Positions 615 to 61,003 of a stretch of 64,000 nucleotides of DNA are shown here, in pieces. The notes under the pieces were generated by a model. That model made no database searches and was not told the DNA's origin. It saw only the letters and a program-made list of their open reading frames with translations. The translations under genes and the position numbers were made by a program. The stretch's first letter is position 1, and each line of letters opens with the position of its first letter. This DNA comes from Escherichia coli. Its GTDB lineage: Bacteria > Pseudomonadota > Gammaproteobacteria > Enterobacterales > Enterobacteriaceae. The DNA lies in the NCBI RefSeq assembly GCF_003790525.1, contig NZ_CP033635.1. One strand, 5' to 3'.

Positions 615-3600
615 GTCGGGTGACAGGAGTCCATTGTGGACGGCTGGCATTCGTCTTCAGCAAACGCACCTCCAGTTCCCCTTCGCCAAATACCGACTGA
701 ACCAAATCAGCTGTCAAGGCGTCCCGATTGGGCGCTCGGGGTATCTGTCCCCTGGCTATCCACTGCTGCAAGCGGCTGCTGGCAAAACCCCTGAGATCAG
801 CGGCAACATCATTCAACCGGTCGGTCATTTTAATAATGGGCCGACCAGGCAGTACGGGGCAATCCTCAGGAATTTTGACCGACATCGCGCGCCTGAGAAG
901 CTTAATCGCCCCTTCCAGATGAGCAGTCAGATGGGTGACAGTCAGATCAATCGAACGTTGGAATTGCTCGAGGCTGTCCTGCACAGCTTCGAATACCTGC
1001 GAGATCCCTGTACCGACCCTCTCCAAATCGCCCAGCACTTCATGATAAGTTGCGATTGAGTCCAACTGCCGTAAGTATTCCTGACTGGCTCGGGCGTCTG
1101 GATCCTTGGCCAACTCTTCTTCGATGCGTTTGCGGAATTTTCCCCAGACCGTAGAGACGCGCATATTTTGCTGTTTTAGCGTTTCATTTAAACCGGCATA
1201 CACTTGGCATTGTGCAGCCAGATCGTCAGCATATTCTGTGATGCTCAGGATCCTACCAGGTAGACCTGCGGCAGAGCTCGGCGTAATGGGCTGGATCATC
1301 GCTTGAGCTGTTTTGGCGTTCTGTAGCCGCTCTTTCACATTTTCAATCTTTCTCAACAGCAGTGTCTTTTGTTCCAGTAGGAACTTGATCTGGTGTTCAA
1401 TCGCATAAAGGTTATTGACGATTTCAGCCAGAGACGTTTGGATTGCCTCTATCTCAATGGGCTTCTCTTCCCAGACAAAATCCTCGTCAAGTGCTTTACT
1501 AGCCTCCTCACAGCTTTGGGAAAATTTTTGCAGAGTTACCTGAGAGCTAATTAGATTTTGCGTGAATTGCTTTTGCTGTTCTTTGAGGCGTACGATGCTG
1601 TTATTAATTACCGTTAGCTCATTGATGGCCGCAGCTTTTACCTCATCCGGATATGTATTGTAGGTGGGTTGAGCGGTCAAACGATCAGAGGCGTAACGTT
1701 GTACCTGTTCAGCATCTTTCAGTTGTTGCTTGAGAACGGTCACTTGATCACCGTTGGCTGCTTCGAGCAATTTTTTGTGCGCCTGAGCAGCCATCTCATG
1801 GGCATATTCAGGGCTTCGTCCTTCCATACCTTCAGTCGCCGTAATCTCTGAATAGAACGGTTCGTTACACAGATTACTCCAGCTACCTATCTGGATAATT
1901 AAAAGGGTTTTCTCGGAGCGTTTGTTCTTCTCGAGCTCGCTCAGCCGTTCCAGCCTCTCTCTCTGGGTGTAAAGAGTGTTCTTGCTTCGCTGAATCTGTG
2001 CAGCTAACTGCTCCAGTTTCATTATCGCCGTTTCACGCTTCGCCCATTCTTTTTCTACAAAAAGACTCACTTTATCATGTGCTTTTTCTGCCTGAATTTT
2101 CTGCTGTTGGGCGTTGTTTAAACGCACCTGGACATCTCTCTTCTCGTCACGCAGTGTTTGCTCATCATGCTCAGCTTGCTTAAGTGCTGCATCAGCATTT
2201 TCCAGTATTAATAGAGCCAGCTCCCGTTGGTCAAGCAGTCCCGCCCAATGCTTACCATACTGTTCGTAATGCCGACTCCAGTCATTCCTGAAAGATTCCA
2301 GTACTTTAAGGGCGCTCTCCGTAGCCTTCACACTGACTTCCTGCGACGCTACAGTATTCTCCAGGTCTTGCAGCCGGGTTTCGTAAGCGGCCTGGCTATA
2401 TCCGTGCTTATCGGGGTTTGAGAGGACAACCTGTACTAATTCAGACGTTTCTCGGCGGAGATCTTGTGCTTCATCCAGCAAGTAAATAGCAATAGGTGCC
2501 TTCTTCCAGGGTAGGATCTCACTAATTTTATGGACCTGTTCAAACGTTACATTGTCGAGTGCGACCAGACTCAGGTAGCGGCCAGGGTTCTGATCGATCA
2601 CCGCTGCAATCTTTTGTGCATCATCGTTGTAAGCAGAGGCCAAATAGTGTGGAAATGTCCATAGCTTATCCCGTGCAATGCCCGCAGCATAAAACGCTTC
2701 AAGTGCCTCATTGACCTGCTTAGCAACCAGTTCATGTCCCGTCACCCTCAACTCGTCCAGTTCGTGCCGGGCTTGCAGTAAACGCTCTTTCATTCCATTC
2801 AGCGTTTGAGCGTTCGCATTCAATACTTTGTCGAGCTGCAATCCACACAGCTCGCTGTGCCAACTCGTGTCTTCAATATCCAGATCATGTCGCGTTGACG
2901 TTGGCAGTTTTTGATAGTTTTTTGCTAAAACTAAAGCACTATCCACAGCCGACTGGTGTTTTTGTTCAGCCAGAATGAGTTTTTGCTGGGCCTCACTTTT
3001 CTCAATTGATGCCTCCCGCACAACATTCAGCTGTGCTTCCAGCGCCTGCTCTTTCTGATGAAGAATTGTATTAGCCAGTTCTTCACTCTGCTTTGCATCG
3101 CGTAAGGTTAATTCCAGTCGGTATTGGGCTGCTACTGGTGTTTCATCCTTCTGGATCAACCCAGCTTCACATAATTCATTCCGTTGCGATTCGCCCTGAA
3201 ATTTGTCTCTTTTATATCCGTCACGCTCCGTTTCCAGACCACCCAACGTCTTTTGTATTTTATCGTATGACTGTCTGAGGACATGGCTTTCCCTGTCCAT
3301 CTGCCCTAATTCTTCCTCAAGCGTAGCCTCCTGCTGGCGATGTCTGTCGATTGCCCACTCTAATGTGCCCAAGGCTTCGCCAGCAGTACGCTCGAAAATC
3401 ACCTGTAGCGGCCTTTCCGTTTCACTTTGGAATACCTTCAGATCTTCATCTGCCTGGCGGTACTCATTCAGGGCCTTAGCATAGGCTTTGTAGTCTATAG
3501 CAGCGTGAGTAATCTCAATCTGGCGCTGATTGGTATCGGCCTCGTCTTGAAGCGCATCGACTATCGCTTTTTGTTTGTTGAACCGATGCTGCACGAGATC

Positions 3601-19561: not shown

Positions 19562-20827
19562 TTAGATCCTAGCAAAATCATAGGCCGTAATATTTTGATA
19601 TCGATTAATATCTAGATAGTCAGCCCACCATTGCATCATCAAACGACGCTCTTCTAAATGCTCTGAAGTATGAATATAAGCTGCGCGTACATTGTTACGT
19701 TCTGAATGGCTCAATTGACGTTCTATCGCATCATCACTCCATAGTCCCGATTCCCCCAACGCCCCGCGTGCCATAGTCCTAAAACCATGGCCACATACTT
19801 CTGTTTTTGTGTCATATCCCATTACACGCAATGCATTGTTTACCGTATTTTCACTCATAACCTTAGTTGCGTCATGATCGCCCGGGAAAAGAAAGTCTCT
19901 ATCACCACTAATCTGCTTAAGCTGTTCTAACAATATAATCGCCTGTCGGCTAAGCGGAACTATATGCTCCTCTTTCATTTTCATGCCACGATACGAGTAA
20001 CGTACGCCTTTAATTTCTTCTCGTTTAGCAGGAATACGCCAAGTAGCGTTATCAAAATCAAATTCTTTCCAACGAGCAAAACGTAATTCACTTGAACGAA
20101 CAAAAGTTAGTAAAGAAAGCTCAACCGCAATTTTCGTCATCATACGCCCACGATATACATCAAGACGTGCCAAGAACTCATGGAAACGATGTGATGGTAG
20201 CGCCGGGTAGTGCCGCGTTTTCGCCGTAGATAACGCACCGGCCATATCAATTGCAGGATTTGAGTCTACATAATCGTTCTGAACAGCATAGCGCATAATA
20301 GCAGTGACACGTTGCTGAAGACGCTGCGCTACATCATGCTTACCACTGGCATCAACTTTTTTTATCGGTGCCAAAAGGTGACTAGTTTTAAGCTGTCGAA
20401 TATCAGACGAGCCAATATAGGGAAAGATATAAAGCTCTAGATAGCGAAGAACCCGTGCCCGATGTTCCTCACTCCAACGCTTATTGCTGGCATGCCATTC
20501 ACGAGCAATAGTTTCAAAATTATAAGCACCAGCATTAACTGCTTGGGCCTCTTTCTGTACTGCTTTTGGATCTATACCTTGCACCAGCAACTTTTTGGCT
20601 TCATCCCTTCTAGCTCTAGCTTCAGCAAGCGTCACAGTCGGCCAAACACCAAAAGCAAGACGATCCTCTTTTTTGTCGGAAGGTCGTCTATATTTCATAC
20701 GCCAATATTTAGAGCCTTTGACAGAAACCTCGAGGTACAAACCGCCACCATCGGCCATTTTATAGGTTTTATCTTTTGGCTTTGCGGTCTCGACCTGTCT
20801 GGCGTTGAGCTTCATTTGGGGGCACAT
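19562..20827 (-). CDS. int: P4-type tyrosine integrase, intact
   Basis: 421 aa; adjacent to the tRNA-Leu 3' end; conserved HGFRT motif and C-terminal catalytic region. Confidence 0.9.
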   Translation of the reverse strand: MCPQMKLNARQVETAKPKDKTYKMADGGGLYLEVSVKGSKYWRMKYRRPSDKKEDRLAFGVWPTVTLAEARARRDEAKKLLVQGIDPKAVQKEAQAVNAGAYNFETIAREWHASNKRWSEEHRARVLRYLELYIFPYIGSSDIRQLKTSHLLAPIKKVDASGKHDVAQRLQQRVTAIMRYAVQNDYVDSNPAIDMAGALSTAKTRHYPALPSHRFHEFLARLDVYRGRMMTKIAVELSLLTFVRSSELRFARWKEFDFDNATWRIPAKREEIKGVRYSYRGMKMKEEHIVPLSRQAIILLEQLKQISGDRDFLFPGDHDATKVMSENTVNNALRVMGYDTKTEVCGHGFRTMARGALGESGLWSDDAIERQLSHSERNNVRAAYIHTSEHLEERRLMMQWWADYLDINRYQNITAYDFARI

Positions 20828-20978
20828 CCCTAATCGAAGTTAAGATGCCCCCAATTATGCCCCCAATGACATCCGGATTTCAACGTACAACCTCGGACGA
20901 CTCGGGACGTTAAAATCACTGCAAGCATTGATTTTTAAGGAATTATTGGACTTTCTCGGATGGTCTAGGAAGTGCTTA

Positions 20979-21063
20979 TGGTGCCGAAGGCCGGACTCGA
21001 ACCGGCACGTATTTCTACGGTTGATTTTGAATCAACTGCGTCTACCGATTTCGCCACTTCGGC
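20979..21063 (-). tRNA. leuX: tRNA-Leu (anticodon CAA)
   Basis: 85-nt cloverleaf on the minus strand (GCCGAAGTGGCGAAATCGGTAGACGCAGTTGATTCAAAATCAACCGTAGAAATACGTGCCGGTTCGAGTCCGGCCTTCGGCACCA). Confidence 0.95.
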
Positions 21064-51804: not shown

Positions 51805-52629
51805 ATGTCAGAAAATGAAAACCTGCTGCTGAGATTGCGCCAGAGCGTTGATGGATATAGCCGAACACAACAGAAGCTGGGAGAGTTTGTACTTAGCGAT
51901 CCGGCAAAAGTTGTCTACCTGACGATTACCGAACTTGCGCGTGAAAGCGGCACCAGCGAGGCTAGCGTCACACGTCTGTGCCGAACGCTTGGGTGTAAGG
52001 GCTATAACGAATTCAAAATGGCGCTGGCACTCGATCTCCGACAAGTACAGTTTGTAGAGCACGGCGGTGATGAGATTGACAATGTGGTCAATGAATCCGT
52101 GCAAGCAATACAGGACACAGCAAAATTACTCGACAGAACCTTGCTGGAAGCAGCCGCGCTTGCACTGCATCAGGCTCAGTCAGTGCAGATTTATGGCGTA
52201 GCAGCCAGTGCCATTCTGGGGGAGTATTTACATTATAAACTCCTGCGTCTGGGGAAACCCGCACAATTGTTCAGCGATATGCATCGTGCTGCCATGAACG
52301 CCACAACACTTAGTAAAAACACGTTCGTGGTGGCGATTTCCAGTTCTGGATCCACGCGCGATCTGCTGCATGTCGTAAAACTAGCGCGTAAGCAAGGTGT
52401 GCGTGTACTGGCGCTGAGTAATACACCGCGCAGTCCGTTAGCTTCGCTGAGTGATATTCAACTGGTCGCGGCCAAACCGGAAGGACCCTTGAGTGCCGGC
52501 GCGCTGACTGCCAAAGTGGGAGTGATGCTGTTGGTAGAGCTACTCACCACATCGCTGATTGCGCTGGATGACCAGTACAGCGAGGTGAGCCAGAAAACAG
52601 CCAGCGCGACCCTACCGCTACTGCTTTAA
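51805..52629 (+). CDS. MurR/RpiR-family transcriptional regulator (HTH + SIS)
   Basis: 274 aa; N-terminal HTH, C-terminal SIS-like domain; divergent from the PTS-nanE operon. Confidence 0.75.
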   Translation: MSENENLLLRLRQSVDGYSRTQQKLGEFVLSDPAKVVYLTITELARESGTSEASVTRLCRTLGCKGYNEFKMALALDLRQVQFVEHGGDEIDNVVNESVQAIQDTAKLLDRTLLEAAALALHQAQSVQIYGVAASAILGEYLHYKLLRLGKPAQLFSDMHRAAMNATTLSKNTFVVAISSSGSTRDLLHVVKLARKQGVRVLALSNTPRSPLASLSDIQLVAAKPEGPLSAGALTAKVGVMLLVELLTTSLIALDDQYSEVSQKTASATLPLLL

Positions 52630-52785
52630 AGACATAAAAAACCGCCGAAGCGCTGGGTGCTCCCCATGAATCAGTGATAATAAACCAACATCATATTCTG
52701 GTAGGTTCTGGCGAGGTGATTAAAAACGGTGCTCAGCACCGTTCGTTTTAAAATTAGCGAGGAGTATCGTAAGATGCTCTTCCCC

Positions 52786-54129
52786 CTACTTCAGAAAATC
52801 CTTCACATCCAGTAGAATAAACTCGTTGTCATCCGCCATATTAGGCCAGCGGCTGGAGGAAAACGGGAAGTTATTATCGTTGCCTACGATGATGTGGTTA
52901 GTGTCAACCACATCCACGTTCTCGATGGTGAAGAACGGGAAGGTCAGCACACCGTCGTTCAGCGGCTTGCGTGCCAGCTTGTTCGGATCCTGAATCTTCA
53001 TCAGGTCAATATAGCCCAGTTTTTCGACAGGTTTTCCGACGTTAGTGTCCGAGAAAGCAATTTTATACACCCGTTTGAACCTGGCTACTTGACTGAAGCA
53101 GTTGTTGGTCGGCGCGCCGGCGACGCAGGCTTTATCCGCCGTGCCTTCGCCGTTATCACGCTCGATCACCAGTCCGTGGGTATCATCTATCATATTGAAG
53201 TCGCCGATGGCGTTCTGGTTGTCTTCCAGCACGTACTGCCAGCTGCGACCAGTCCAGGCCTGCTGTTTGGCATCGAACTCCAGCACACGCAGGTAGCGTT
53301 TTCCGCCAACGTTCTCGAACTGCTCACCGTCCCACAATGCCCCTTCCAGCAGCGGATACAGCTTACTGCCGTCCGGCGAGATGGCCATGCCTTCAAAGCC
53401 TTTGGAACGCGCCACCTGGAAGTTCAGCTTACCGTCCGGAGCGCTAGGTAGAGTCAGCGTCGGGTTGTCCGGCGATTTAACCACCTTACCGTCCACTTCT
53501 GTGTCGAACACCGCCAGCACCTTGCCGTTCAGGTCGGTCTTGATCAGGTAAGGACCGAACTCATCACCGATCCATAAGGCATCGTCGGAAAACTGGAAGC
53601 TTTCCGGATCAAAATCGCTGCCGGTCAGATAGCGTAGTTCGGTGCTCTCGTTGATGATGTGGAACGGCACCTTTTTATCCGGATCATGCAGGAACAGCGT
53701 CTTCAGCGGTACTACCGAGCCGTCTTTGAAATCTATCTTGTATTGGTTGAGGTACAGCATGGCGTCCGGGGAGTTGGCTTTGCTGCCGAAGCCATTGTCA
53801 GTCAGCACCCAATAGGTACCGTCGGGCATGTGTTTGATACCTGAGTGGCCCTGCAACGGCTGACCATTGATCGGCAGGCTGAGTCCTGTCAGGCGTTCTG
53901 CGGATTTGCCCGCTACGCTGCCCAGCTCGGTGACGCGTTTGCCGCTGGTGTATTTGCCGCTCTGTTGCAAATCGCCCGGCGCATCCTTCGGTGTTGAAAC
54001 AGCGGATTTTGCCGGCAGAATTGCATGCCCGGCCAGCGTTGCCTGCACCGGCTGCGCTTTGGCCCACAGGTTGGCGCTCAGAGCCATGCAGCCAACCAGT
54101 ATAGCCAGCCGGATTTTGGAGGTGTGCAT
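52786..54129 (-). CDS. Secreted hypothetical protein (possibly phytase-like esterase family)
   Basis: 447 aa; signal peptide MHTSKIRLAILVGCMALSANLWA. Confidence 0.4.
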   Translation of the reverse strand: MHTSKIRLAILVGCMALSANLWAKAQPVQATLAGHAILPAKSAVSTPKDAPGDLQQSGKYTSGKRVTELGSVAGKSAERLTGLSLPINGQPLQGHSGIKHMPDGTYWVLTDNGFGSKANSPDAMLYLNQYKIDFKDGSVVPLKTLFLHDPDKKVPFHIINESTELRYLTGSDFDPESFQFSDDALWIGDEFGPYLIKTDLNGKVLAVFDTEVDGKVVKSPDNPTLTLPSAPDGKLNFQVARSKGFEGMAISPDGSKLYPLLEGALWDGEQFENVGGKRYLRVLEFDAKQQAWTGRSWQYVLEDNQNAIGDFNMIDDTHGLVIERDNGEGTADKACVAGAPTNNCFSQVARFKRVYKIAFSDTNVGKPVEKLGYIDLMKIQDPNKLARKPLNDGVLTFPFFTIENVDVVDTNHIIVGNDNNFPFSSSRWPNMADDNEFILLDVKDFLK

Positions 54130-54549
54130 GTCATACTCTCCTTTCGTTGTTATCGCCCAGAAGTAAAACTAACGTCATTGTAGGGAGCAGAAATGACAGA
54201 AATATTATGATTACGGTAGGGATAGCCGTTGCCGGCTTCCCCGCCATGTCAACGCCGGTATTTATGGTTTCTGTTTGCTTTTCTGTAAAAATAAAGGGGA
54301 GAGACGACGGTACTATAAACAACCATGATGAATCTCATCTATTCGGCCCAGATGAAAGACGCGAGTGAGGCTCTTGTTCGTTAAGCGGATACGTATATCC
54401 TGTACAATAATCAGATATACCTCACGGGGTCTAACACTTTATCATCAACGAGTTGCAGATCAGATAGTCATACGGTTGCTGCGTGCTTTAGCTGGCTGAA
54501 TACAGCCTGAAATCATCACCGTAATGACATGATGCCCAGCACAGCCTTA

Positions 54550-55200
54550 CCTTTCTGGCGGCGATGGCCACAACAGCGCGTCAGTATTCTCTGCGTTCAA
54601 CCAGTGAACAGACCCAACGACTGAATGAGTCAGTCCTTTTCTCAGCACCAATCAGTACTGAACGAGCCCCCTGAACCAGAAGCATTCGCAGATACGAATC
54701 ACCGGCTTTTGTTATCCTGCCCAGCTTCGACATTCAGCCGCTGCTGTATTGTGATAGCGTCAGCCCAGCCAGGCTGCCAGTTGCCGTCCCTTTTTAAAAT
54801 CATGTGCATTACCGATACAGGCAACCAGCGCACAGGCTGTTGTGGGACCAACTCCTTTTAGCTCCATCAGCTGTTTAATACGGATATCATCCCTTGCAGC
54901 CTCATGAAGACGGTGGTCATGAGACGATATGAGTTCATTTTACTCTGACAGTTCGCACAACAAACGGATGAAGGGTCATTCCACTGCCCCTGGACAGTAT
55001 TCCCTGCTGGATTTTACGCACGTGCCTTATCCCCACAGGCAGCAGCAGACCAAATTCACTCAACAGCCCCCGGATTTCATTACGCAACGCCGTTCGCTCG
55101 CGGATGATTCTGGCCCGGACCCGGTATTCTTCCTGTAACGTCTGCTGGGATTCCGATATGAAAACAACAAATCGCATGCCGGGCCTGCTGACGGCCTCAC
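54550..55200. mobile_element. IS110-family transposase remnant
   Basis: Fragmentary frames (e.g. RNEIRGLLSEFGLLLPVG) typical of IS110-family C-termini; no intact ORF. Confidence 0.4.
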
Positions 55201-55623
55201 AGATGGCAGCTGCATTATTAGCGTCGTTTTTGTTACCTTTGAGATAAGATTTGACAAGTTTCTACGGAATAATGCGCACGGTAGGCCCCATACGGAATGA
55301 GTTCCCGTGCCCAGAATGGGAAGAGCCACAGACTTCGATGCTGATGAGGCAGGGAGAAAGCCCGGAGAAAAACGTCATCATGTGGGGAGGGCTCAGCGTT
55401 TTTCTCCGTACCACTATTCATTGTGATCAACGCCGTGGATTTGAAAAACATTTTTCGGCAAGATCGAAACCAATACGATTAATATTCATGACTGACTTCT
55501 CCACCAGGGAACTGGGTACATCTCAGTCTGGAACGTTGATGCCGTAAGGAGGAAGATGTCAATCACATCGGCCTACACGCGATGTTAGCTCAGATAGGCG
55601 AAACGTATCCGACATTACACTGG

Positions 55624-56940
55624 TTAAGACTTCGTCGATTTCTCAAAGCGGCGTAGTAACTGATTCCCACGCTCAACGGCGGTATCCAGCGCCTGCTGTG
55701 GCGTCTTCTTACCGGTCCACACGCTCTCAAGCTCTTCATCCACAATCGCTCTGATCTGCGGCATGTTGCCCAGACGTAGTCCTTTGGTGAACGGTAACGA
55801 CGGTTTGTTCAGCATCTGACGTGTCGCGATATCCGCCCCTGGGTTTTTCTCATAAAAGCCCTGCTCACGGGTCAGGTCATACGCCGCTTTGGTGATTGGC
55901 AGATAACCGGTTTTCTGATGCCACTCGGCAGCATTTTCTGGCTTCGCGAGGAAGTCGAGGAACTTCGCCACGCCGGTATACGTTTCTTTATCTTTGCCCT
56001 GCATCACCCACAGGCTGGCTCCGCCGATAATGGCGTTTTGTGGTGCATCTTTCGCGTCAGCGTCGTAAGGCATCATGCCTACGCCGTAGTTGAATTTGGC
56101 GTACTCGCGAATGCTGGCAAGAGAACCAGAAGAGGCAGTCGTCATTGCGCAATCACCGTTATAGAACTTCTCGGTGGATTCATCCTTACGCCCGACGTAG
56201 CTGAAATCGCCTTTCTTGTTCATCTCTTCGAGCATGGCGATGTGTTTCACCTGCTCCGGCTTGTTGAACTCCAGCACCGCATCTGTGCCGTCAAAGCCGT
56301 TGTTTTTGCTGGCAAACGGCAGACCGTTCCAGGCGCTAAAGTTTTCCAGTTGGATCCAGCCCTGCCAGCCGCTGGAGTAGCCGCACTTCATACCGGAGGC
56401 TTTCAGTTTCGCGGCATAGTCCGCCAGATCCTGCCAGGTTTTCGGCGGCTGTTCCGGGTCTAATCCTGCTTTCTTGAAAGCATCTTTGTTGTAATAGAGA
56501 ACAGGAGTCGAGCTGTTGAACGGCTGGGAGAGTAAGTGTCCCGTTTTGCTGTCGGAGTAGTAGCCTGAAACCGTCGGCACAAACTGCGACTCATCAAAGT
56601 TAATCCCCGCCTCTTTAAACACGTCATACACCGGTTTAATGGCTTTCGACGCCATCATGGTGGCGGTGCCAACTTCATAAACCTGCAAAATAGCCGGAGC
56701 GTTACCGGTACGAAATGCTGCGATCCCCGCACTTAAACTCTCTTCGTAGTTGCCTTTATAAGTCGGTATAATTTTGTAATCCGGGTTTTCGGCGTTAAAA
56801 CGTTGGACCAGAGAATTCACCTCTTTACCCAGTTCCCCTTCCATAGAGTGCCAGAACGGAATGGTCGTCACTGCCTGTGCATTCCCCATTAACGTCAGTC
56901 CGAGCACCAGTGCTGAAGCTGTATAATGTAACGGTTTCAT
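55624..56940 (-). CDS. ugpB: sn-glycerol-3-phosphate ABC transporter periplasmic binding protein
   Basis: 438 aa, [23 protein letters not shown]...; near-identical to E. coli UgpB as I recall; no ugpAEC downstream. Confidence 0.85.
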
Positions 56941-57073
56941 CGTTTATCTCTCTTGCTTGTTGTACCTGATGAGCGAATTCACACGTTTCATGCTCGTGGG
57001 ATTAAATATCATGCCCGAATTGCAGAAAAATAACTTTTTTATTACATGTGTTAGACAGTAAAGTGTTAGAAAG

Positions 57074-57412
57074 ATGACAGAGCAGTGACGGCACAGGTGA
57101 GACGTGGTGGATTGAATTTGATCCTGCTGTTGACAGTGAAATCCGCAAGACATGTCCGGCAGTGATCGTGAGCAATGACGCAGCAAACAGGAACCTCGCT
57201 CGAGTAGTCGTCGTTCCTCTGACCAGTAACACAGAGCGAGTGTATCCAAGTGAGGCTGTTGTGACCGTAGGTGTCAGAGCAGCAAAGCGATTGTAGAGCA
57301 GATTATGGCGGCGGATAAGTCCTGTCTCAAAACACATATTGGCTCGTTGTCCAAAGCAGATATGTTGTCTGTTGAGGACGCAATCAAGATCCATCTTGGT
57401 TTACTGCGGTAA
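57074..57412 (+). pseudogene. MazF/PemK-family toxin, frameshifted
   Basis: Frames WWIEFDPAVDSEIRKTCPAVIVSNDAANRNLARVVVVPLTSN and SKAIVEQIMAADKSCLKTHIGSLSKADMLSVEDAIKIHLGLLR are offset by 1 nt; no in-frame start. Confidence 0.65.
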
Positions 57413-58129
57413 CGCCATGTGAATCTGTCGGCTACCGCCATTAGTGACGGAATTTTCTGTGGGGCAGCGTACCAATGGCATTCGGTTAAGTTCTTGCTGG
57501 AGCATCAAAAGAGTTCCAGCGCGTTCTGGGCCGTACATATTTTCGTGGGTAACACCTCCCTGGCCTTACTCGCTGAGTCATACAACTGCGATCGATTCAG
57601 ATGCCATTTTGCAATCAGCCTCTCAGAAAGAGCGCAACAGAATGATTTTAAATGTTTTCCTGTTACCCGAATCAGTAAAGACAAGTACCTCACTACGAGA
57701 AACAAGCAGTTTTTGAAATTAAAATTTTGTTTATTTCTACTACTACCGATGAAAACGTTATTATCTTAATAATTAATGTCATTTCAGGATATCCATGTAA
57801 GGTTAAGTAATAATATATGAGCCTGTATTTTTATTTTACATCTTTCTCACTCTGTGAATGAAAATATTCAATAGAAAATTTGATTTGAATAATTTATATA
57901 ACTCTTCTATATTACATCAATGCCGATAGAAATCGTAAAAAGCTTCGTTTTCATAAAAATTTCTTTCAATAATATTTGTAGCTGGACCAGCCCCTTGAAA
58001 CGCCAGATAGTGGATGTATCTTAAAATAAGAGACAGGCTTGGATATATGTCTGACACTGGTTCTAATTTTGAGATGACTGGAACTTTGCCGGGGCTGTAG
58101 CTTCGTAAACGTAAAACTCCTCAGGAAAA

Positions 58130-58580
58130 AATTGGCATTATTCAGCAGACAATGGAGCCTGGCATGGCGGTGTCACATGTGGCGCGTTTGCGTTGTATTC
58201 AGCCCTGCCTGTTGTTTAAGTGGAAAAACAATCTCTGGAAGGAAGTCTCACTGCTGTTGCTTCAGGAGAGGGTGTCGTTCCTGCCTCAGAACTGCCTGCC
58301 GCTATAAAACAAATAAAAGAGTTACAGCTCTTGCTGGGTAAAAAACCATGGAAGTTTAGATCCTCAAAGAAGTGGTGGAGTATGCGCAATCGCGAAAATG
58401 GATAGCGCATGTGCCCTTGTTACCTTCGGACAAGGAATAGCCCCGGTAAGCCGTGTTCTGGGCGATACTCAGGCGGCAGTCCCTAAATGAAGGACTACCG
58501 TTAGTGAATGCAAAGCGCGTTTACCGTAAGCGTAAACTGACCGCCGTATGTAGCCATCAGACGAGAATTGGTAACTTAGA
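58130..58580 (+). mobile_element. IS2-like (IS3 family) orfA remnant with start of orfB, degraded
   Basis: Frames [34 protein letters not shown] and [12 protein letters not shown] resemble IS2 InsC; multiple frameshifts. Confidence 0.55.
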
Positions 58581-58695
58581 CGCCCATCTGATATAGACGG
58601 ACATCTAAGTATGGAATTACAGGACTGGCGAAAAGAACCTCGTAAAAACTATTTGAACCGCCCCGGGTTTCCTGGAGAGTGTTTTATCTGTGAAC

Positions 58696-59586
58696 TCAGG
58701 CTGCCAGATCATCGTTTCCGATGGAAGCATAATAAGCTTTTTCTGCTTCTGCCGGTGGGATATGGCCCAGCCTTTCCAGCAATCGTCGATTGTTATACCA
58801 GTCCACCCACGTGAGTGTGGCCAGCTCCACTTCTGTCCGGTTTTTCCAGCTCTTACGGTGTATTACCTCCGCTTTGTAAAGGCCATTGATGCTCTCCGCC
58901 ATCGCGTTGTCATACGAGTCACCAGTACTTCCTGTTGATGCCAGTAATCCGGCTTCCTTAAGCCGCTGTGTGTAGGCCAGCGATACATACTGAGAACCTT
59001 TATCACTGTGATGGACTGTGCCGGACGGTCGACGGGCCCATAACGCCTGCTCCAGAGCATCCAGCACGAATGTCGTTTCCATAGACGATGAGACCCGCCA
59101 CCCCACGATGTATCCGGCAAACACATCAATGATGAACGCCACATAGACGACCCCCTCCCATGTGCTGACGTAAGTAAAATCAGCCACCCACAACTGGTCA
59201 GGACGTTCTGCCACAAACTGACGGTTTACGCGGTCGCCTGCGGCAACGGCTTTCCGGCTGACGGTAGTGCGGACCTTTTTACCCCGGAGAACACCGGCAA
59301 GTCCCATAACCGCCATGAGGCGCGCCACTGTACATCTGGCTACCCTGATTCCTTCCCGTAACAACTGACGCCAGACTTTACGCACACCGTATACCTGATG
59401 ATTCCCATCGTATACGCGCAGTATCTCTTTCTTCAGCCAGTCATCGCGCTGCGCACGGGCACTGCGTTTATAAGGATGATGTCGCTGTTGCTGACAGTGG
59501 TAATACGTTGACGGGGCAATATGTAGTTCACTGCATACCGGTCCGACCCCGTACAGCTTACGCAGCTTATCCAGCAGTGGCATCAC
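58696..59586 (-). CDS. IS3-family transposase OrfB (DDE integrase domain)
   Basis: 296 aa; DDE catalytic core (WVADFTY...HHSDKGSQY...). Confidence 0.85.
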
Positions 59587-59909
59587 TTTTTCCAGAGGCG
59601 GTCGAACTCCGCCTTCGCAAAATAAGCGGAAGCCTGGCGAAGGATATCGTTACTGCGGCGCAGTTCACGATTTTCACGTTCCAGCTCTTTCAGACGCTGA
59701 CGTTCAGCGGTGGTGAGCCCGCCATCACCGCCTCCGGTATCCCGCTCATGCTGGCGTACCCAGACACGCAGAGTCTCCGGTGTACAGCCAATCTTTGGGG
59801 CAATGGAACAAATTGCCGCCCACTGTGAGTCATATTCGCCCTGACTTTCCAGAACCATACGAATCGCCCTCTGACGGACTTCGGGGGAAAAACGAGTATT
59901 TTTAGTCAT
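59583..59909 (-). CDS. IS3-family transposase OrfA
   Basis: 108 aa; HTH and leucine zipper ([16 protein letters not shown]). Confidence 0.85.
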
Positions 59910-59914
59910 TCTGT

Positions 59915-61003
59915 TTACCTCTTTCTCAGGGAGTTTAGTCTCCAGGATTCCCGGGGCGGTTCAACTTGTGATTTTTTCCCTTTTGCTGTCAGAGTTCGGT
60001 AACGAGAACACAATCGTTGTTGAGCTTTCCATGCAATATCTTTGGAATATTGTGTTACAGAGTCCGGTCGGTAATATATAAGCCATGCACCAACTTTTGC
60101 AGGTGTACGATAAGACCAGGCGGCTTCGTAAAGCAGACGTCTCAGTTCGCTGTTTCCAACTTTTGTTATTCCTCTGGGACGAATACTGTTTCCACTGGAA
60201 TATTCACCTGGCACCAGTCCCAGAAAAGCCATGAGCTGTTTGGGATTGGAAAATCGCGAAAAATCACCCAGTTCAGCAACCAGGGTTATTGCAATTAGCT
60301 GACCAACACCTTTTAGAGCCTGCAACTGGCAGACCAGATTGCACAGAGACCACTCAGGTAACAGGCGAGATATTTCCTGGTCGAGTTGAAGTATGCGATC
60401 TTCAATCTGCTCCAGACTTTGACAATAGTGTTGAAAAGCAATCTGCTGAGATGGCTGACTAAATGATTGATTAGCTAACCAGGTTCGATGTTTGCCGGTC
60501 CAGTGCTTCCCTGCATAACGTTTGTCTGTTCGCAATAGCATGCTCAGAATTCGCTGTCGGGCAACTCTGCTGTCTCGTTTAGCTGCTGCACGGGCTCTGA
60601 TTAGATCCCGCATAGCTTCATGAGTCAGGTCAGGGATCCAGACAGGGGTAAGTTCACCAGCCCGCAGTAACCTGGCAAGAGAAATTGCGTCCCGATGATC
60701 ATTTTTGATTCTGTCTGTCGGTGATTTTGGTATCCGGGAAGGGGCAATAACCTGGCATTTTATATTCATCGCTGTGAGTTGATGATATAGCCCAAAACCA
60801 CAGGGGCCAGCCTCATAGCAGGAAAGAATGTTTCCGTAAAGTCCCTGCAATTTTTGAAATAATCGACGTACAGCCTGGGCTTCGTTGTTAATCGTACCAT
60901 AATAACGAACTTCGCCAAGCCGTTCAGGTGCAGCAATAGCAACCGCCAACGTTTCTTTATGTACATCCAGCCCGATGTAAGCTGCAATATTTTCCGAATG
61001 CAT
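59915..61003 (-). CDS. IS110-family transposase, 3' end replaced by IS629 sequence
   Basis: 362-aa ORF; last ~16 codons lie inside the IS629 terminal repeat (<=59963). Confidence 0.7.

Follow-up and report, generated by a model that had tools for sequence, protein, structure and literature searches.

An orphan ugpB gene at a mosaic joint between an IS110-family remnant and a truncated toxin gene in a widespread Escherichia coli island

The stretch of DNA analysed here (henceforth, the window) comprises 64,000 nucleotides of contig NZ_CP033635.1 in the Escherichia coli assembly GCF_003790525.1. It harbours an intact, orphaned copy of ugpB, followed by decayed insertion sequence (IS) DNA of the IS110 family and preceded by a pseudogene for a toxin of the MazF/PemK family (Table 1). 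The locus is a mosaic joint in a widespread E. coli island, which has already been annotated automatically and is an ordinary product of mobile-element shuffling. The fuller explanation that we favour, and consider reasonably probable, is that the island was acquired horizontally, that ugpB was captured through an IS110-family element sitting in a repetitive extragenic palindromic (REP) element, and that the captured gene still works under PhoB, with relaxed constraint on its protein.

The orphan gene is an uninterrupted open reading frame (ORF). Its product matches the NCBIfam UgpB equivalog model NF008211 over the full length (931.9 bits; cut-off, 411) and the solved structure of E. coli UgpB (PDB 4AQ4) with an E value of 1.3e-281. 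It is identical to K-12 UgpB at 425 of the 438 amino acid positions (97%); none of the 13 differences falls on Glu66 or Trp169 (mature numbering), which have been named as ligand residues of UgpB (10.1101/529602) and are unchanged in the island protein. The first-pass annotation, made from the letters alone, had called the gene near-identical to its canonical counterpart. That description is too generous: 65 of the 1,317 positions in the coding sequence differ from K-12 (95.1% identity), i.e., a divergence of 5% at the nucleotide level.

In an alignment to the K-12 locus, homology to ugp is confined to the 1,533 bp between positions 55569 and 57101. It stops 55 bp past the ugpB stop codon, and the island gene is not the first gene of a ugpBAEC(Q) operon. 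Indeed, tblastn searches with K-12 queries found no match to UgpA, UgpE, UgpC or UgpQ across the 64-kb window, in agreement with the earlier observation that ugpAEC is missing beside ugpB.

On the downstream side of ugpB, the junction lies inside the REP of the ugpB–ugpA spacer, at TTATC^CGGCCTAC. Up to the break, K-12 reads ...GCTTATC and the window ...ATCACAT, after which both continue with CGGCCTACACG... In strain E2348/69, a frameshifted IS110-family element located between rrf and kgtP is flanked by GCCGGATGCGACGCTGGCACGTCTTATC and CGGCCTACGC; together these make up a single REP, split into halves with the break at the same position. Because this relative splits a REP at the same position, the left end in the window is taken as a genuine REP insertion junction of an IS110-family element. 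The right end of the IS adjoins the upstream region of a phytase-like gene, and not the other REP half and ugpA.

The IS itself had been described as IS110-family debris, and RefSeq agrees, labelling it “IS110 family transposase, frameshifted; internal stop”. Homology to IS110-type (DEDD) transposases is present; the remnant does not constitute a complete mobile element, and REP sequence occurs only on its left-end flank. The transposase frame carries at least four frame changes and at least three in-frame stops, i.e., at least seven disabling lesions. Moreover, the remnant is a chimera of two lineages. Positions 54234-54871 are 91.4% identical to positions 2934-3575 of locus L005, which belong to an intact element with a 340-amino-acid transposase on plasmid unnamed1 of ETEC-2265, and positions 54863-55576 are 86-88% identical to the E2348/69 element. 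The two homologies overlap by 9 bp only (54863-54871, the switch zone), and neither enters the other half. At the protein level (tblastn), the ETEC-2265 transposase matches the window at 36% over residues 1-172 and at 71-81% over residues 194-340; its residues 238-340 find a match of 80.6% amino acid identity in the 3′ half, interrupted by stops and frame changes. The ends of the IS gave no Rfam match when guide, bridge or seek RNAs were sought, and for the right end, the only one for which folding was computed, the structure is no more stable than that of shuffled sequence (z = 0.15). The transposase gene of the E2348/69 derivative (L007, ~2770-2860) has undergone an expansion of a (GGACCC)n repeat to approximately 17 units; the copy in the window has two.

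The simplest reading of the chimera is that two different IS110 copies would have recombined, one located after ugpB in the donor and the other beside the phytase-like gene. An IS-adjacent deletion of a naturally hybrid IS could be invoked as an alternative.

At the opposite end of the captured fragment, ugp DNA abuts the toxin remnant. The remnant shows 80% amino acid identity across 105 of the 108 residues of the intact toxin of pSTEC640_4 (UIV71484.1). It begins at the fourth codon (GETWWIEFDP... versus MRRGEAWWVEFEP... in pSTEC640_4), and a single-base deletion further on splits it into two small ORFs that RefSeq annotates. The frameshift suspected in the first-pass annotation is thus real; the alignment it had called for located the deletion and also revealed that three 5′ codons have been lost. 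The called fragments match Pfam PF02452. Against the chromosomal MazF model NF007386, the toxin scores 37 bits where the cut-off is 120, hence it is not an orthologue of E. coli MazF. In pSTEC640_4, the antitoxin gene (UIV71483.1) overlaps the start of the toxin gene. With this antitoxin as the query, neither tblastn nor blastn detected any significant remnant across the window, so the earlier remark that no antitoxin is obvious extends to the whole stretch. The hexamer GGTGAG and the preceding GACGGC are shared by both parental contexts (GGTGAA in pSTEC640_4), which is the signature of an illegitimate, microhomology-mediated join. A toxin lacking its antitoxin would be expected to be counter-selected, which fits its inactivation. 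Immediately to the right of the toxin, an AT-rich segment (57413-58070; ~30% G+C) includes no ORF of at least 60 amino acids and has no Rfam match; it is 99.8% conserved in island-bearing genomes.

A region rich in ISs and repeats is where assemblies fail, and one could ask whether the joint stems from an assembly error or chimeric reads. Such an artefact can be rejected, because the junctions recur base for base in 198 independently finished genomes as well as in thousands of other assemblies. In all, we surveyed 5,426 complete E. coli genomes: the full 3.5-kb arrangement occurs at 99.8-99.9% identity in those 198 (about 4%), the hosts of which include chicken, human, cattle, pig and dog. Taken separately, the ugp fragment is present at 99% identity or more in 195 genomes, the 5′ half of the IS in 216 genomes (in a single copy each, and in this context only) and the toxin remnant at 99% or more in 217 records. 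The exact island UgpB protein was found in 5,224 blocks of a large assembly collection. The ugpB gene, the IS remnant and the phytase-like gene are linked in 10 out of 10 flanking contexts listed, within surroundings that vary. A search of the literature for an island-borne ugpB found no paper describing one.

The first-pass annotation had suggested either that ISs had scrambled a segment of the chromosome or that a copy had been relocated, and had proposed to look for a second, intact ugp operon. That check is positive: ugpAEC is present (at 80% coverage or more) in 5,421 of the 5,426 complete genomes, and island-bearing genomes show a second ugpB match. Since ugpAEC is near-universal and a second match accompanies the island, the island gene is an additional copy and not a relocated one; both junctions fit with scrambling. 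In island-bearing genomes, the normal ugpBAECQ operon should also be present.

Upstream of the start codon, the captured fragment retains a complete, 11-bp-phased array of CTGTCAT-like Pho-box half-sites (57019-57091). The six overlapping 18-mers of the array match the consensus at 13, 14, 11, 12, 13 and 11 of 18 positions in the island, and at 11, 14, 12, 13, 12 and 12 in K-12. The motif reported for ugpB by chromatin immunoprecipitation sequencing (ChIP-seq) of PhoB, TGTCATCTTTCTGACACC (PMC10294691), has TGTCATCTTTCTAACACT as its island counterpart, with 2 of 18 positions different. A strict scan of the island sequence for the Pho-box consensus (three mismatches or fewer) returned no site at ugpB; as the K-12 boxes themselves share only 11-14 of 18 positions with the consensus, island and K-12 were compared box by box. 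Given that the boxes are kept, PhoB-dependent expression would be expected.

The course of events could then have been as follows. In a donor Escherichia, a REP-targeting IS110-family element would have inserted into the REP just after ugpB, and subsequently recombined with a different IS110 copy beside the phytase-like gene on an island or plasmid, by which ugpB would have become fused to the island, leaving ugpAEC behind. On the promoter side, the join at the GGTGAG microhomology would have stripped a mazEF-like module of its antitoxin and of the first toxin codons, and a frameshift, after or before the join, would have killed the orphaned toxin. In phosphate starvation, PhoB would turn on the island gene via the kept Pho boxes, and its product, exported to the periplasm, would add to the UgpB pool. 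It would hand sn-glycerol-3-phosphate (G3P) and glycerophosphodiesters to the resident UgpAEC and/or act as a transporter-independent, bile-responsive chaperone. Since the island protein would be located in the periplasm and shares 97% of its residues with the resident UgpB, it should be able to dock to the resident UgpAE. The review PMC8144458 describes UgpB free of G3P as a chaperone, the overexpression of which confers bile resistance. Judging from its sequence, the island ugpB is probably functional and controlled by PhoB, its product acting together with the resident UgpAEC, as a chaperone in the periplasm, or both.

Whether the protein is under selection was assessed by polarising changes against five canonical alleles. 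Eleven replacements are unique to the island branch (A12V, A16T, D42N, A45V, V58I, Q67E, N68S, A189S, N276S, P381S and V398A), compared with zero to two in each canonical allele. The island branch thus carries 11 replacements and approximately 19 synonymous changes (hand-corrected for a doubly changed arginine codon at 397; the script count is 12 non-synonymous and 17 synonymous), versus 5 and 76 for the five canonical lineages together. The corresponding ratios of non-synonymous to synonymous rates (ω) are ~0.16 for the island branch and ~0.02 for the canonical branches (Fisher P = 1.9e-4), implying that constraint has been relaxed or that the protein is adapting. The replacements are conservative, with a mean BLOSUM62 score of +0.58 versus about -0.6 for random non-synonymous changes (P ~0.01).

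These data bear directly on the foremost rival, in which ugpB was dragged into the island as a neutral hitchhiker and is functionless, a future pseudogene that has not yet received a disabling mutation. The roughly nine-fold higher ω on the island branch agrees with it, as does the location of the gene amid pseudogenes and IS debris, and the resident canonical ugpB makes the island copy redundant. Furthermore, diversity among island ugpB copies (3.8-5.3 differences per kb) is not below that of the flanking pseudogenes (2-3 per kb). However, a functionless gene would not be expected to accumulate significantly conservative replacements, nor would its exact protein be expected to recur in thousands of assemblies. 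Among four island alleles, the ORFs of which are all intact, there are five synonymous and four non-synonymous polymorphic sites where neutrality predicts ~1:3.5 (binomial estimate, ~0.03), in a tiny sample of nine sites. The 1,317 bp of ugpB are free of stops and frameshifts, whereas the neighbouring 1-kb IS carries its seven or more lesions; this contrast is weak evidence, as the lesions may predate the fusion. No single one of these points is strong; together, they favour a weaker but real purifying selection acting on the island ugpB, and we therefore look upon the hitchhiker as a possible, though rather doubtful, alternative.

The origin of the captured fragment was sought among the relatives. 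The canonical ugp alleles of 5,223 E. coli genomes show 90-95% identity to it, none being closer than 95% (60 sampled rows of these alleles gave 92.0-93.7%). In addition, we scanned genome contigs for a degenerate pattern spanning the ribosome-binding site and the initial codons. The hits were two E. coli-like genomes, E. whittamii, Escherichia sp. E1V33 and one contaminant; E. albertii, E. fergusonii, E. marmotae and E. ruysiae, without a match to the scan pattern, lie outside this comparison. Synonymous divergence (dS) between the island copy and canonical alleles amounts to 0.19-0.26, and that among canonical E. coli alleles to 0.14-0.26. As the former is no larger than the latter, a foreign donor is not singled out. 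On sequence grounds, the donor could be an unsampled E. coli-like lineage or another species of Escherichia. The synonymous diversity of canonical ugpB is in itself high (K-12 vs 536, dS 0.19; K-12 vs E69, dS 0.14) for proteins only one to six amino acids apart, which suggests old allelic lineages or frequent recombination at the locus.

Besides the small polymorphism sample and the uncertain age of the IS lesions, several observations weigh against the explanation that we favour. In the stretch that separates the Pho boxes from the ATG, many island positions depart from the canonical sequence and 4 bp have been inserted; the island is clearly more diverged here than canonical alleles are from one another. 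PMC4415409, summarising Kasahara 1991, describes two promoters for the ugp operon, the downstream one with Pho boxes and the upstream one for cyclic AMP (cAMP)-CRP; a scan for CRP sites found no convincing one in either K-12 or the island. The rise of ω on the island branch would also be expected of early decay. Recombination between two IS110 elements is deduced from a switch zone of 9 bp, and no parental arrangement of an uncut phytase-like gene with a complete IS110 element was found on plasmids among the E. coli and E. fergusonii copies; the plasmid-borne joints of the phytase-like gene and IS110 are cut by IS1 at 55045 or 54857, and cannot decide on the recombination model. Finally, the genomes returned by the donor scan are 89-94% identical to the fragment, none being closer to it than K-12.

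Two further readings ascribe a new role to the island protein. In one, the orphan UgpB has shifted its ligand or role and forms a module with the secreted phytase-like esterase encoded 1.5 kb downstream, a Pho-controlled unit for organophosphate scavenging or host adaptation, with possible read-through of the dead IS. The ugpB gene, the IS remnant and the phytase-like gene all lie on the minus strand and are linked in every context examined, and no terminator-like site is predicted on that strand between ugpB and the phytase-like gene. Two of the 11 lineage-specific replacements (D19N and A22V in mature numbering) fall in helix α1, which lines the binding cleft of UgpB (10.1101/529602). Yet the linkage may be merely physical, in a block of only 4 kb. 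The phytase-like gene, together with a stub of the IS110 remnant, also moves without ugpB as an IS1-flanked unit, on IncHI1B plasmids found in E. coli and E. fergusonii. Moreover, the replacements are without exception conservative and leave the named ligand residues as they were. Such a module seems improbable. Likewise improbable is the proposal that the island UgpB is a selected, diverging host-adaptation paralogue of extraintestinal and avian pathogenic E. coli, which would provide more periplasmic UgpB, or altered ligand or chaperone properties, under phosphate limitation or in bile, and might be co-expressed with the esterase as an organophosphate-scavenging unit assembled by IS110. We retain the capture of a still working, PhoB-controlled gene under relaxed constraint as the preferred explanation.

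Table 1. Features of the mosaic joint and its immediate surroundings, in window coordinates.
Feature	Positions	Strand	Description
Phytase-like esterase, secreted	52786-54129	-	447 aa (amino acids), Pfam PF13449; constant downstream neighbour of the ugpB/IS110 block
IS110-family pseudo-element, whole	~54234-55568	-	Downstream of ugpB; decayed chimera of two lineages
IS110 3′ half	54234-54871	-	C-terminal part of transposase and right end of about 254-257 bp; lineage of ETEC-2265 plasmid unnamed1
IS110 5′ half	54863-55568	-	N-terminal part of transposase, from 55489, and 79-bp left end; E2348/69 lineage
ugpB–ugpA spacer remnant	55569-55623	-	55 bp, ending in the distal half of the REP element (CGGCCTACACG...)
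ugpB, orphan gene	55624-56940	-	Intact ORF, 438 aa
ugpB upstream stretch	56941-57101	-	161 bp kept 5′ of the ATG; from alignment to K-12
GGTGAG microhomology	57096-57101		ugp/mazF join; from three-way comparison
MazF/PemK-family toxin pseudogene	57097-57412	+	First three codons (MRR) gone; 1-bp deletion after 57271

The gene at 52786-54129 is annotated as “esterase-like activity of phytase family protein”, and none of the NCBIfam families matches its product. The island includes a gene for a YadA-like adhesin, and its relatives also carry genes for a TonB-dependent receptor and an autotransporter, as well as a phosphotransferase system (PTS)/transketolase module that the window lacks. Positions 48508-58526 are 99.9% identical to strain AR_0085, which, like APEC O2-211, bears the island. 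Identity with the tkt1 island, suspected from the transketolase and PTS genes, was rejected: tkt1 occupies the interval from metE to ysgA, and its gene content is different (PMC3349570).

Some features set this strain apart from its relatives. A gene for a PTS EIIBC component of the maltose/glucose type (50084-51639, minus strand) has suffered a 1-bp deletion at 51367, which divides it into ORFs of 415 and 108 amino acids; it is intact (518 amino acids) in AR_0085, and the split gene is probably a strain-specific pseudogene. The IS256-like IS1414 copy at 47232-48507 is 100% identical to one elsewhere in AR_0085 (L001, 41399-42674), in which the corresponding site is empty. To the right of the joint, an IS629-like element of the IS3 family (within 58600-61003; orfA, 59583-59909; orfB, 58696-59586) contains the Rfam ALIL frameshift pseudoknot (59512-59628; 116 bits). 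Another transposase ORF of the IS110 family, unrelated to the first (59915-61003; 362 amino acids; NF033542, 254 bits), adjoins this element with its 3′ end, and the two together replace the TonB-receptor part of the island in this strain. Further to the left, tRNA-Leu(CAA) (leuX; 20979-21063, minus strand) lies directly beside an ORF for a P4-type integrase of 421 amino acids (region 19562-21063); these mark a separate, leuX-associated island, and the idn/yjgR-like ORFs to the right look like core genome.

In practical terms, the name “ugpB” stands for two different loci in about 4% of E. coli genomes, which matters for pangenome, transposon-sequencing and expression analyses in which reads are mapped or orthologues are assigned by name. 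The joint also provides a base-resolved example of how an IS110-family element that targets REPs can initiate the incorporation of a core-gene fragment into a mobile island. Should the gene be functional, nature would here have supplied a binding protein whose gene lies apart from those of its transporter; in gut and extraintestinal strains, it would also help to study the chaperone role that UgpB plays independently of the transporter. A little interest is added by the base-resolved capture mechanism, by the survival of the Pho boxes and by a protein evolution that is accelerated yet conservative; nothing here would surprise a specialist.

Compared with known systems, the island protein is closest to canonical E. 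coli UgpB (b3453; PDB 4AQ4 and 6X84), the binding protein of the PhoB-regulated ATP-binding cassette (ABC) importer for G3P and glycerophosphodiesters, with which it shares 97% of its amino acids over the full length, the signal peptide and the Pho boxes. It differs in that ugpA, ugpE, ugpC and ugpQ do not adjoin it, that only 161 bp of upstream DNA are left, that the core promoter has diverged and that the protein has 11 replacements of its own. As for the IS, the described case of a REP-targeting IS110-family element is IS621, reportedly from the work of Choi et al. in 2003. The REP-inserted element of E2348/69 shares with the window the junction TTATC^CGGCCTAC and a 5′ half that is 86-88% identical; by contrast, the IS in the window has REP sequence on one side only, a 3′ half of another lineage and a destroyed transposase. 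With plasmid-encoded type II pairs of the PemK/MazF kind, such as that of pSTEC640_4, the window has the toxin domain in common, but its copy is devoid of the antitoxin, the start codon and an intact frame. Several binding proteins share one ABC transporter in the cases of LivJ and LivK with LivHMGF, and of HisJ and ArgT with HisQMP. By analogy, an extra binding protein whose gene lies apart from those of the permease could dock to the same membrane complex; however, the Liv and His proteins are the products of core genes and have clearly different ligand ranges, whereas the two UgpB proteins are 97% identical and the extra one is encoded on a mobile island.

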